From positions 66,707,055 through 66,771,054 of the forward strand of contig NC_057723.1 in the NCBI RefSeq assembly GCF_004010195.1: a stretch of 64,000 nucleotides of DNA. The letters are read 5' to 3'. A program made the position numbers and the translations under genes. Below the pieces are notes generated by a model, which saw only the letters and a list, made by a program, of their open reading frames with translations, ran no database searches and was not told the origin of the DNA. Shown here one piece after another: positions 28,539-51,887 of this stretch (position 1 is its first letter; each line of letters starts with the position of its first letter). Source of the stretch: Chiloscyllium plagiosum. Taxonomy: Eukaryota.

Positions 28539-28772
28539 CATCTCATTTTTGAGCAGCGTCTGAGAATGAAATGGCCTCATCATTTTCCCCACGAGAAAGA
28601 TTACCATTTCCACCCTCAGTGTTGCAGACTCCATCTTTGCCTCAGCCCACTGAAAACCTCATTCAAAGCCTGCCACCCAGCTTTGTGTTCACCCAGTGTC
28701 ACGATGCCTGCTAATTTACATGATGCAGTGTAAAGCATTCTTGTGCAATGAGGCAATTGTAAAACGAACTGG

Positions 28773-28778
28773 TTTATT
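28773..28778 (-). terminator. NPM1-A poly(A) signal AATAAA
   Basis: TTTATT on the plus strand about 70 nt after the stop. The context GTCATTGTAAATAAACCA is shared with copy B. Confidence 0.75.
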
Positions 28779-28846
28779 TACAATGACAGATAAAATAGAA
28801 GGACAACGTTCACAGCAAATTTTGTGGTGTTACAGCTACAGTTATT

Positions 28847-28894
28847 CTACTTCCCATCCAGCGTCTGTCTCCACGTCCAGAGATCTTTGATCAT
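28847..28894 (-). CDS. NPM1: NPM1-A exon 11 (last coding exon)
   Basis: [19 protein letters not shown]; retains the WxW nucleolar signal. Confidence 0.9.
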   Translation of the reverse strand: MIKDLWTWRQTLDGK

Positions 28895-48700: not shown

Positions 48701-50285
48701 AATAGTGTTCAGGAGGAATGTGTTTGTTTCCAGTTGCAGGGATGGTAAGTGGTTGTTATGTATTGTGGGTATGCTGAATGTGACTCGACGTTTTGTTACA
48801 GGGTGTTGGTCTGCCCAAAGTGGAGTCCAAATTCGTAAACTTTGTGAAAAATGGCTTCAAGGTGGACGACCCAAAGGTGAGTGCTTGACTTCAGTCTTGT
48901 TTGTGAACTTTTTCAGTCTGTGTTGGTGTTTTCCTTGCAGTCTCCTACATGTTTCTTTGCTGTTGTTGAGTTGACTGCTTGGATTGTAAATGCATTATAC
49001 AGCAGCTGAAATGGAGTCTTATCCCAACTAGTGGAATTGCTGAGCAGTTTTATACCTATTCAATCTGGCAAGAAGGTTGATTGTTCCCCTTGAGCCATAT
49101 GTGACGAGCTGGGGCAGAGTGGTGCATAAGATGCTTTGGATACTGGAATTGTTGAAAACAACATGCTGTACATTCTCTGCAGTTCAGGCACGACATGTGG
49201 AGTGACTATTTCCAGCATGTGACATTTTGTCCAAAGTCATTTTAGAAATGTATTGGGTTGAGGAAGTTGACAAAGATCAAGTAGCCACGTTAGGTCAGAG
49301 TATTGTGCAGAATTGTTAGTGCTCATCAGTGCTTTGTAATCAAATTTACAGAAATCTGAATCTGTATGTGAACAGCAAGTTAGAATGGAGGGATGCAGAA
49401 TGGTCTATATGTTCACATTCACAACACAAAACGGTATTGCACCGAAACAGGCTCTTTGGATCACCATGTTGGTGCTGACAATCATGCCATTATAAACTAA
49501 ATCTATCTACCTGCACATGGCCTATATTTCCCCATACCCTCGGTCTTTCTAAATTTTGCTAATGTATCGGATTTTGCCATTTCCCCTCGCAGACAGTCCA
49601 GTCACCAACAATCCTGTTTTTTTTAAAGTTGCCTCGCACATCTCCTTAAACATCCTCCCTCTCACTTGAACCTATGTCCCTAGTATTTGATATTTCTGCC
49701 CTAGGGAATAAGATGACTGACTATTCCACTGTATCTGTGCCTTTCATGTTTTTATATACTTCTATCACGTCACCTCTCTGCCTGTGACACTAATAAAAAG
49801 AATGACAGGTTTGTCCAATCTCTTCCTTGTAACTAATATATTCCAATTCAGGCAACACCAGCATCCTCTCCAAAGCACCCACGTCCATAGAATGGAGGCT
49901 AGAGCTGCACACAATACTCCAGATGTGTCCTTTATACAGCTAGGAAGCTTTGGGGGTTAATAAAACTGTAGAAAAGTGACTAGACTCATAAGTGGATACA
50001 GTTCAAACTATGAGATTGTACTAAATTTGTGTAAAAACTTGAGTGCAATATTATTTACACAAATCTGAGATTTTCTTCATCAGGGAAGTTATGATAGGCT
50101 GTGGTGTTTCTTCCTCAAACTGGGTAAGAATACCTGACAGTGGCCTGTTGATGTTTGATCAGTAGGGCAGAGGTGGTGCTGTCACATGGGCAGCTTCCAT
50201 CAAGACAAGGTATTAATCATATTTTGTTGTTTTACAGATCATTAAAGATCTCTGGGTATGGCGACAGGCAATGGATGGGAAGTAG
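39734..50285 (+). CDS. NPM1: Nucleophosmin paralog B, complete 11-exon gene, 305 aa
   Basis: join(39734..39797,41422..41504,42024..42143,42331..42424,42944..43071,43594..43628,45802..45868,46739..46843,47610..47708,48802..48876,50238..50285). All introns are GT-AG, the 918-nt frame is open, and intron phases match copy A. Confidence 0.94.
40311..40476. other. Assembly gap in NPM1-B intron 1
   Basis: Run of N in a CT-rich tract. Confidence 0.99.
40610..41225. mobile_element. Penelope-like terminal fragments in NPM1-B intron 1
   Basis: Shares the AATTCTGCAAGTACAAATTCACCCC block with 8580-8980 and 34450-34530; degenerate hammerhead arms. Confidence 0.65.
41422..41504 (+). CDS. NPM1: NPM1-B exon 2
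   Basis: (G)[27 protein letters not shown]. Confidence 0.93.
42024..42143 (+). CDS. NPM1: NPM1-B exon 3
   Basis: [40 protein letters not shown]. Confidence 0.93.
42331..42424 (+). CDS. NPM1: NPM1-B exon 4
   Basis: [31 protein letters not shown]. Confidence 0.93.
42944..43071 (+). CDS. NPM1: NPM1-B exon 5
   Basis: (A)[42 protein letters not shown]. Confidence 0.88.
43594..43628 (+). CDS. NPM1: NPM1-B exon 6
   Basis: [11 protein letters not shown](E); CAG acceptor, GTGAGT donor. Confidence 0.87.
44123..44158 (-). ncRNA. Minimal type I hammerhead ribozyme motif (second PLE family, intact)
   Basis: Minus strand reads ATTC-CTGAAGA-A-GGGC-CTGT-GCCC-GAAA-CG-TC-GAAT, with a GUC cleavage triplet, inside a PLE terminal fragment at about 44029-44230. 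Confidence 0.7.
44720..45035 (-). mobile_element. HE1-type SINE, young full-length copy (NPM1-B intron 6)
   Basis: Near-consensus sequence with CpGs retained and a (TAATC)n tail. Confidence 0.88.
45802..45868 (+). CDS. NPM1: NPM1-B exon 7
   Basis: [22 protein letters not shown]. Confidence 0.88.
46739..46843 (+). CDS. NPM1: NPM1-B exon 8
   Basis: [35 protein letters not shown]. Confidence 0.88.
47610..47708 (+). CDS. NPM1: NPM1-B exon 9
   Basis: [33 protein letters not shown]. Confidence 0.9.
47745..48046 (-). mobile_element. HE1-type SINE (NPM1-B intron 9)
   Basis: Near-consensus; absent from the corresponding intron of copy A. Confidence 0.88.
48802..48876 (+). CDS. NPM1: NPM1-B exon 10
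   Basis: [25 protein letters not shown]. Confidence 0.92.
50238..50285 (+). CDS. NPM1: NPM1-B exon 11 (last coding exon)
   Basis: [19 protein letters not shown]. Confidence 0.9.
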   Translation: MIKDLWVWRQAMDGK

Positions 50286-50332
50286 AAAAATGTTTTTATG
50301 TGCAAAAATGTTTACATGCGTCAGTCATTGTA

Positions 50333-50338
50333 AATAAA
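50333..50338 (+). terminator. NPM1-B poly(A) signal AATAAA
   Basis: About 50 nt after the stop, followed by GT/T-rich sequence. Confidence 0.75.
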
Positions 50339-51887
50339 CCAATGTGTTTTATAATTGTGCCTCATTGTATTATGTTTCAAACTGCACCACATAGATCAGC
50401 AAACAATATGATACTGGGTGAACAGAGGGCAAGGTATGAGTATTAGAGTTTTGAATGAGCTAAATTGGACAAGATCGGAGAAAGGAGCAATGGTGTATTG
50501 AATAGTTCATTCTGGAAGTAACATGATTTCAGATTAGATATTCAGTCCCTGATTAGGGAGAGATGTGAATCAGAGGCTAGGATGAGAGGTTTTCCCTTCT
50601 TACCCTACACTTAACAACAGCAGAAACCCAAAGTCATAAATATCCATCACTGACACCTGCAAGTCTTTCAAGTCCTAGTACCCACAGGTGTCTACAGTGT
50701 TTTGTACAGATGTGGAAGAACAATCATTTTCTTCCTCTTCCCTTTTGATTAGGTGAAAAAAGGGGGAAAAAGCCTGCACAATCTTACATTCCATAATTAC
50801 TAATAGGGGTTGGCACAAACTGGACTTGCTGATTGCCATGTCATTTAATTTTGGGCCTCCCCAGGATGATGACAATTGTCCCACTTGTTTCTCTCCCCCC
50901 CCCCCCCCCCCGACAATGAATCTACCTCTTGTAAATTCCTTGAAAGACTTTGCTTTGGAAAGTGTATACATATGAGCATTGACTAGCCCCTGCTGTTTCC
51001 CATGTAGGTAATGGACAGTGATACGATGGAATAGAAATGAGCACATTGCCATTTAGTTAACTCTTGATATGAGCTCCAACCTGCCTTTAGATTTGAGAAT
51101 TTGATATAAATCCACTTTTTTTAAAAAAAGCTATAGTTTCCTTTCTCTGACCCCTTGGAGTCTGACTTGCAAAAGATCCAATGCTGCTGTCTTTTTGTGA
51201 ATATTAACATTATTCACATTTTGGGTGATATGATTGGACTGTTTAAAGTACTTTAGGAATTTGGCCAAAAGGTGTTTTCATGGAAATGTTGAGGTAAGTA
51301 TCTAGTTTCAATGCAATCCATAAAAAGATGACTAAGCTTTTATTGGCCTCCCTCACAACTGCTATGGACCAGGGTGTATTAGATAGTTCTGATATAACAT
51401 AGTACCAATCTCATGATCTCCCATAAGAAAACTGGACTTGCATCATAGCTAATGCACTTAAGGAAAGTTTGCATTCTACAATTGTGTTGAAACTGATTTG
51501 AGATGAAGACACTTGTTATAGCAGGACTAACTGTAGTAAAATCTAGTGAAGGATCTAAAGAACTTTATAAGATTTGCTGTAATAAATGAGAGAGCTGTAT
51601 TGAGCTCTAGTTTTAAAAACACAAATCCTCTGGCCTGGATGAATTGCACCGAAGGCTGCTATCGTAGGTGAAGCAGGGAATTGCAGGTACGGTGACATTT
51701 TTAATTCTCTGGCCACAGGCGAACAGCCAGAGGATGGAAGGACAGGAATTGTCCCACTTTTTAAGAAGGGTGGTAAAGATGAACTAGTAAATTACTGACC
51801 AGTGTGTGTCTCATCAGTGGTCGGGAGGCTATCGGAGAATATTCTGAAGGAGCAAATTAATACCTACTTGGAAAGGCATAGGCCATT

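Follow-up and report, generated by a model that had tools for sequence, protein, structure and literature searches.

Nucleophosmin (NPM1, B23) of vertebrates consists of a core, acidic tracts, a basic region and a three-helix C-terminal domain, and this C-terminal domain with its two tryptophans is absent from NPM2 and NPM3. The same architecture, including both tryptophans, has been found twice in a 64,000-nucleotide stretch of the bamboo shark Chiloscyllium plagiosum (assembly GCF_004010195.1, contig NC_057723.1, forward-strand positions 66,707,055 to 66,771,054; hereafter the window, whose own numbering is used below), where two NPM1 genes, copy A and copy B, are oriented away from each other. 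Sharks thus differ from the described NPM1 system by two linked copies, of which A lacks the phospho-acceptor at the position of human T95; in addition, both shark copies carry a Cys at human S48, and both bamboo shark copies a Phe at the Tyr of exon 10. Four vertebrate ohnologues are reported in the nucleoplasmin family (PMC6233590, PMC2446394). One of them, npm1b/Npm4 (Wotton et al., PMC2446394), is comparable in that it gives a genome two NPM1-like genes sharing their domains, but it is described there as a whole-genome-duplication paralogue linked to Fgf24, and in the ray Hypanus it lies on another chromosome than NPM1 (195 Mb versus 94 Mb contigs). The npm2a/npm2b pair, according to the available text of PMC6233590, is likewise an ancient local duplication in the nucleoplasmin family that is present in sharks; it concerns another family member and its copies are 30-46% identical, whereas the shark NPM1 copies are 78-93% identical and mosaic.

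The history considered here as probable is one old duplication followed by recurrent conversion, with a retained island in exons 4-5 that holds the T95 position and the A2 acidic tract. According to this proposal, npm1a would have been duplicated once to a linked pair in or before the galeomorph ancestor, at least 180 million years ago, and exons 1-3 and 6-11 would have been made alike again and again by conversion, each lineage on its own, while exons 4-5 would have retained their paralogue identity. Conversion would largely have stopped in carpet sharks, and for this reason the C. plagiosum copies would be the most diverged pair.

Reconstruction of the exons has borne out the two intact head-to-head NPM1 genes of 11 exons, encoding 310 and 305 amino acids, that were proposed in a preliminary description of the window (Table 1). 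GT-AG borders were present in 20/20 introns, no internal stops were detected, and the intron phases (1,0,0,1,0,2,0,0,0,0) are common to both copies. The distance between the ATGs, formerly given as about 2.9 kb, was measured as 2938 bases, 986 of them N; because this run of N interrupts the spacer, the real spacing and the join of A and B depend on scaffolding. The TATA box and poly(A) signal claimed for each copy were also located. Copy A is identical to the C. plagiosum protein XP_043559874.1 at 310/310 shared residues. The named A proteins of this species (XP_043559874/5) have 316 and 315 amino acids and use a later exon 8 donor (+18 bases, 32126-32109, minus strand), which adds 6 residues; this donor is used by the named Chiloscyllium proteins and is present neither in copy B nor in the Hemiscyllium proteins seen. 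No third NPM1 copy was found in the window by tblastn, and Rfam gave no matches in the window, hence no intronic small nucleolar RNA at the gathering score.

Table 1. Coordinates of the two NPM1 copies and associated features in the window (motif names in the promoters are matches to consensuses that we take to be the usual ones).
Feature	Position	Strand	Description
NPM1 copy A	ATG 36796 to stop 28847	minus	11 coding exons, 310 aa (316 with longer exon 8)
Copy A, exons 1-6	36796-36724, 36273-36191, 35694-35575, 34011-33918, 33672-33560, 33213-33173	minus	
Copy A, exons 7-11	32738-32666, 32231-32127 (or to 32109), 30957-30850, 30128-30054, 28894-28847	minus	
Copy A, codon at human T95	33985-33987	minus	Ala, no phospho-acceptor
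Copy A, exon 5	33560-33672	minus	Short A2 acidic tract, first half of bipartite nuclear localisation signal; part of island
Promoter of A	36797-36930	minus	CpG-rich, GC box, CCAAT, TATA 36849-36843; motif matches only
AATAAA of A	28773-28778	minus	Within the part of the 3' untranslated region alignable with B
NPM1 copy B	ATG 39734 to stop 50285	plus	11 coding exons, 305 aa
Copy B, exons 1-6	39734-39797, 41422-41504, 42024-42143, 42331-42424, 42944-43071, 43594-43628	plus	
Copy B, exons 7-11	45802-45868, 46739-46843, 47610-47708, 48802-48876, 50238-50285	plus	
Copy B, codon at human T95	42355-42357	plus	Thr, in T-P motif
Copy B, exon 5	42944-43071	plus	A2 tract extended by repeated short acidic motif, then Lys-Asn; part of island
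Promoter of B	39510-39733	plus	CpG-rich; YY1-, ETS-, NRF1-like, GC box, CCAAT, E-box, TATA 39686, initiator-like start; motif matches only
AATAAA of B	50333-50338	plus	
Assembly gap	38222-39207		986 N, between A and B promoters

In C. plagiosum the two proteins are identical at 238/299 aligned residues, and their differences in exons 2-4 (8/99), exon 8 (10/35) and exon 10 (6/25) match exactly the counts given earlier. The pairwise ratio of nonsynonymous to synonymous divergence (dN/dS) was 0.22 (95% bootstrap interval 0.15-0.32) with a dS of 0.48 (0.43 outside exons 4-5), the ratio being 0.12 (0.04-0.27) in the core and 0.31 (0.09-0.95) in exons 10-11. This shows that both copies are under purifying selection and long-term constraint, although a pairwise ratio cannot exclude the recent loss of one copy. 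Eight of the 10 intron pairs gave a BLAST hit (68-95% over 22-354 columns) and introns 5 and 7 gave none, so that the introns are indeed still partly alignable. An allelic or haplotype duplicate is ruled out by the dS of 0.48; this value and the pairs detected in 8 other species uphold the old retained duplication that had been suggested. An assembly artefact (uncollapsed haplotype or mis-join at the gap) could be suspected from the 986-base run of N between the promoters, but besides the dS, which excludes alleles, pairs on one contig occur in 8 other assemblies, in one case on a contig of just 359 kb, and the gap affects only the exact orientation and spacing. Together with a pairing of NPM1 with its NPM4 ohnologue, considered next, this explanation is scarcely credible.

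Both copies are NPM1 (npm1a), and not NPM2, NPM3 or NPM4. Domain PF03066 was above the cut-off in exons 3 and 4 of both copies (4/4) and PF16276 in exon 10 of both, exon 9 of both copies giving no Pfam match (6/8 scanned exons matched); exon 11 of each copy contains a W-x-W motif that aligns with PDB chain 8as5. This full-length nucleophosmin was also the best PDB match (E 9e-90, with zebra shark B as query), and copy B is nearest to the B proteins of whale shark and zebra shark (82-84%). Proteins named npm1b (Npm4) were found in Mobula, Hypanus, coelacanth and a teleost. The npm1b proteins of the 2 rays, the coelacanth and the teleost are split off together in a 32-row tree (81/97; 98% of bootstrap trees), and the shark pair stays with the chondrichthyan single-copy genes and bony-vertebrate NPM1, in an unresolved fork. 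The assignment of both copies to NPM1 in the preliminary description was therefore correct, neither of them grouping with NPM2/NPM3 or npm1b, and an NPM1 plus NPM4 ohnologue pair is ruled out, npm1b/Npm4 being a separate and distant group present in rays.

Two proteins annotated as 'nucleophosmin-like' were detected on one contig in 8 other galeomorph species, covering all four orders (whale, zebra, basking, white, two cat, smooth-hound and horn sharks). Their accession numbers are consecutive in 6/8 species, the basking shark pair lies on the 359-kb contig, and A-B identity ranges from 78 to 93% across sharks. Heptranchias and Pristiophorus (squalomorphs) and 6/7 rays have one protein each, and the two database models of Callorhinchus align as one gene, absence of a second copy meaning here absence from annotated proteins. 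The pair had been called lineage-specific; this does not hold in any narrow sense, since it spans all four galeomorph orders. A second copy is absent from the annotated proteins of 2 squalomorphs, most rays and the chimaera. The oldest horn-shark fossils are dated at 180 million years in PMC7614348, and the pair is therefore, given one origin, at least 180 million years old; an older duplication with loss in squalomorphs is possible. Two further records were noticed: in Narcine bancroftii two almost identical NPM1 proteins are encoded on separate chromosomes, through either a recent duplication of its own or an assembly problem, and a 110-aa protein filed under Salmonella enterica falls in the basking/white shark NPM1 cluster, likely by record contamination.

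The mosaic history of the pair was revealed by comparing partitions of the alignment. In the whole-protein tree (40 rows) the copies pair by order and 3 A/B changes are needed. The alignment accounts for this: 10/11 paralogue-diagnostic columns lie within exons 4-5, whereas all columns with a derived state common to both copies of a lineage (25/25) fall outside them, among them lineage indels present in both copies (a 3-residue insertion in both Scyliorhinus species, a 1-residue deletion in Mustelus). The tree of exons 4-5 (25 rows) required 1 A/B change in 96% of 200 bootstrap trees, and the tree of the remaining exons (25 rows) required 5. Approximately unbiased (AU) tests carried out at the protein level were significant in 5/6 cases. 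For the remaining exons, monophyly was rejected for the A copies (p 2e-9) and for the B copies (p 2e-4); for exons 4-5 the groupings A+B of carpet sharks (0.002), of lamniforms plus carcharhiniforms (0.012) and of Mustelus (0.0002) were rejected. A column scan, without the acidic tract of exons 6-7 (columns 183-215) and with indel runs counted once, gave 48 informative columns, with 13/14 paralogue-favouring columns inside exons 4-5 and 33/34 homogenisation-favouring columns outside, in 7 runs, a pattern equalled in 0/100000 shuffles. When the labels were taken from tract length alone, 9/9 long copies had Thr plus Lys-Asn and 9/9 short copies had Ala, the 9 species representing about three independent lineages. 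Alternative isoforms and one mis-spliced C. punctatum model were omitted, and hemiscylliid A copies without a B partner were left out of the alignment, the 25-row trees, the AU tests and the scan. Gene conversion between the linked copies is very probably the mechanism of this mosaic.

Outside exons 4-5, A-B identity amounts to 82-90% in carpet sharks, against 90-98% in the six species of the other orders. The carpet-shark A copies form a clade (97/92); wholesale exchange in this order therefore ceased earlier than the divergence of bamboo sharks from whale and zebra sharks, which is placed before the Cretaceous-Paleogene boundary in PMC8529718. Two exon 10 residues are common to both bamboo shark copies and present in neither relative, which suggests a later conversion patch in exon 10 of bamboo sharks.

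Several observations weigh against a single duplication with recurrent conversion and a selected island, and those concerning the history are the following. The other species are known from proteins only, so the orientation is seen solely in the C. plagiosum window, where no recent conversion tract was found at the DNA level (A-B self-BLAST segments 67-87%; the longest identical run among four exons compared is 42 bases, in exon 2). The A/B labels and the partition were chosen after viewing the alignment, the exon-partition trees and AU tests were run under LG+G4 without a mixture model, and the B clade in the exon 4-5 tree has a support of only 80/78. In addition, Heterodontus A+B was not rejected in exons 4-5 (p 0.068). 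This last result, and the grouping by order in the whole-protein tree with its 3 label changes, would be expected from at least three independent local duplications (in horn sharks, in carpet sharks, and in lamniforms plus carcharhiniforms), exons 4-5 having changed in parallel. Such a history is very improbable, because the same insertion, Thr/Ala split, Glu-to-Lys and Asn-to-Asp changes must have hit the same copy each time, and further duplications would be required in Mustelus and Scyliorhinus to account for the indels common to both copies.

In two protein searches, Chiloscyllium plagiosum, C. punctatum and Hemiscyllium ocellatum yielded A, from 4 annotations of these 3 species, but no B protein; proteins shorter than 171 aa without exon 3 lay outside the searches. 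This absence of a hemiscylliid B protein also counts against the proposed history and leaves expression of B in C. plagiosum putative. B could accordingly be silent or decaying in bamboo sharks, with the pair no longer functional as a pair there, and its longer branch outside exons 4-5 (0.17 versus 0.093 for A) and its 10 own changes in exons 8-9 (3 in A) point the same way. This is nevertheless improbable, since the B frame is open, 10/10 introns are canonical, the promoter is a CpG island with an observed/expected ratio of 1.02, and the cores of A and B have each accumulated 4 changes of their own in 99 residues.

What the paralogue-specific island contains was determined by alignment to 8as5, whose chain numbering was taken as human plus one: the diagnostic Ala/Thr column corresponds to human T95, and exon 5 to the A2 tract around S125. 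Position 95 is Ala in 9/9 A copies and Thr in 9/9 B copies, and the A2 tract of B is 4-8 residues longer than that of A in 9/9 pairs. Thr was present at this position in 82/86 named bony-vertebrate hits (of the other four, 3 had another residue and in 1 the motif was not found; the count excludes 8 unnamed rows and 1 human row), and the position is Ala in the single-copy squalomorphs, Glu in rays and Thr in the chimaera. Separately, it was observed that all rays examined combine this Glu, a phosphomimetic-like natural state, with a shortened A2 tract. According to the review PMC11312075, phosphorylated S48, S88, T95 and S125 accompany monomeric, nucleoplasmic NPM1, and T95 lies in the second nuclear export signal (NES2) and affects centrosome association; T95 is reported to be phosphorylated by MST4, with T95A and T95D mutants behaving differently (PMC12436196), and A2 to be required for phase separation with R-motif peptides (PMC4786410). 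The preliminary description had instead stressed the disordered and nucleic-acid-binding tails of the copies. Exons 10-11 do differ at 10/40 residues in C. plagiosum; the tails of the other 8 species, however, are nearly homogenised, with 0-5 differences in 39-40 residues, so that tail divergence is ruled out as a conserved difference and the shared one lies in exons 4-5. Doubled casein kinase 2-type sites in B were also discarded, as the S-x-x-D/E count is 1-2 in both copies, with no consistent difference.

In the mechanism proposed, B would carry, whether retained or acquired anew, a T95-Pro phospho-acceptor at a place in the core that in human belongs to the NES2 region, together with a longer A2, A would lack the site and keep a short A2, and conversions across position 95 and exon 5 would have been purged by selection. 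Selection as the cause of the island is judged only slightly more probable than the opposite. The competing possibility, to which a clearly smaller though appreciable probability is given, is that the history was the same and the island is neutral: early indels or insertions of transposable elements near exon 5 would have broken homology, and the pair would have been kept for NPM1 dosage or split expression, with T95/A95 and A2 length as passengers. The data on exon 5 are consistent with such a barrier. Both of its intron flanks are unalignable (9/20 flanks are unalignable overall, and the alignable ones are 60-82% identical in C. plagiosum), no BLAST hit was obtained for intron 5, and exon 5 shows the highest synonymous divergence, with 15/23 sites against 54/171 elsewhere (p 0.002, uncorrected), a peak that was not significant by scan permutation (58/500). 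In the window, the evidence from exon 5 therefore fits selection or a neutral barrier alike. The acidic residues gained in the A2 of B are, moreover, only 0-4, with equal numbers in Heterodontus; Thr95 is not essential in elasmobranchs, because single-copy squalomorphs function with Ala95 and rays have Glu; and the promoters of A and B differ in motif content. Exon 4 fits selection better, because its flanks are alignable (z 9.8 and 7.9) and its synonymous divergence is ordinary (6/23.5 sites), and yet codons 94-95 differ at 3/6 bases between A and B and position 95 sorts by paralogue in 9/9 pairs, in an exon that does not appear sealed off. In whale and zebra shark B an A-type Met94 stands beside the B-type Thr95, as if exchange had reached codon 95, a parallel change being also possible.

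If selection has maintained the island, B would be a kinase-responsive and more multivalent subunit and A a T95-insensitive one, expressed from separate promoters, and both would probably be able to co-assemble via their near-identical cores. A precedent is given by the human NPM1-NPM3 hetero-oligomers (PMC3367197), in which a paralogous subunit co-assembles and alters RNA binding and nucleolar shuttling; NPM3, however, is described there as lacking the C-terminal domain and stable homopentamers, whereas shark A and B are both full-length. By this analogy, the mixed pentamers and the tuning of phase separation suggested in the preliminary description are plausible in sharks, and A-B co-assembly with an effect on condensates is put forward tentatively, as a rather doubtful prediction. 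More speculative still, and unlikely as a whole, is the complete model, in which one subunit that is T95A by nature and one that bears T95 and an extended A2, both kept for at least 180 million years against continual conversion, would co-assemble, the A:B ratio set by separate promoters (A possibly with a 5' terminal oligopyrimidine, 5'TOP, start and B not) acting as a dial on the kinase-sensitive sites and acidic stickers per pentamer, and so on nucleolar condensation and centrosome-related shuttling.

With regard to the promoters, in A a pyrimidine run (about 36820-36811, minus strand) lies about 31 bases past the TATA box and is TCT/5'TOP-like by a consensus that we take as given; in B an initiator/YY1-like motif (39714-39720, plus strand) lies at a similar distance of about 31 bases, both being motif matches in one species. 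Mammalian NPM1 is a TOP mRNA. Judging from these motifs, the A and B mRNAs might differ in translational control. A shared bidirectional promoter was considered superfluous, as A and B are each provided with a TATA box and a CpG-rich promoter of their own; the two promoters are separated by about 2.8 kb containing repeats that resemble short interspersed elements (SINE-like) and the gap. The spacer upstream of A also contains an inverted repeat pair (37295-37436) of SINE-like fragments with 67-base arms, 90% complementary and 8 bases apart.

Other elements were identified in the window. NPM1 is reported to be linked with Fbxw11, Fgf18 and Tlx3, the human order being NPM1-FGF18-FBXW11 (PMC2446394). 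A first coding exon of 15 codons (7914-7870, minus strand), which ends in a GT donor and lies within a CpG island at about 7600-8550, gave as sole match a C. punctatum hypothetical protein (100%). We presume that it resembles the N-terminus of FBXW11 (beta-TrCP2), a name that the database search did not confirm, and no FGF18 motif was found in the window. There may have been a local rearrangement, since the 5' end of this presumed FBXW11-like exon faces the 3' end of NPM1-A, unlike the human order. At 9150-14469, an element of about 5.3 kb stands between two direct repeats of about 730 bases (93% identical). Its internal frames are broken and, on visual inspection, of retroviral appearance; none of four stretches was matched by Pfam, and it is probably a decayed long terminal repeat element or endogenous retrovirus. 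Retroelement remnants at 53894-55495 and 21465-21782 include an integrase zinc-binding domain (PF17921) and reverse-transcriptase fragments.

The genes of the pair were already annotated as 'nucleophosmin-like' in public protein sets, and no description of a shark NPM1 pair was found in the full-text literature among the matches listed, in a coverage that excludes most subscription journals (PMC13663732 serving as background only). If selection holds the island, the pair would amount to a long natural mutagenesis of NPM1 in which the T95 site and the A2 tract are what resisted overwriting among some 300 residues; in human cells these two have already been linked with oligomer state, centrosome association and phase separation. 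The effects of T95 phosphorylation and of A2 length could then be studied in a whole organism with natural variants at hand, and vertebrates would have an unusually old example of duplicates exchanging sequence by conversion. Were the island neutral, the pair would be a tidy but ordinary instance of concerted evolution. The pair is also a warning that whole-protein trees misdate this duplication as several recent ones. The closest parallels in pattern are exon 5 of the primate red/green opsins (PMC3924837) and ATP1A1 of Leptodactylus (bioRxiv 2020.08.04.234435), reported as linked duplicates that group mostly by species and by paralogue at a few sites. The opsin case is given as 30-40 million years old, against at least 180 million years for the shark pair, which is inverted in the one species seen and has retained a phospho-acceptor and a disordered acidic tract as its distinguishing sites. 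Site function is proven in the opsins and ATP1A1 and inferred from human data for the shark pair, in which conversion is not recent in C. plagiosum. A sharp peak set between homogenised introns and synonymous sites is not observed in this species, where dS is 0.43 outside exons 4-5 and the alignable intron flanks are 60-82% identical. The pattern itself is thus known from the opsins and ATP1A1, and what is new in the shark NPM1 pair is its age, the gene family and the nature of the retained sites.

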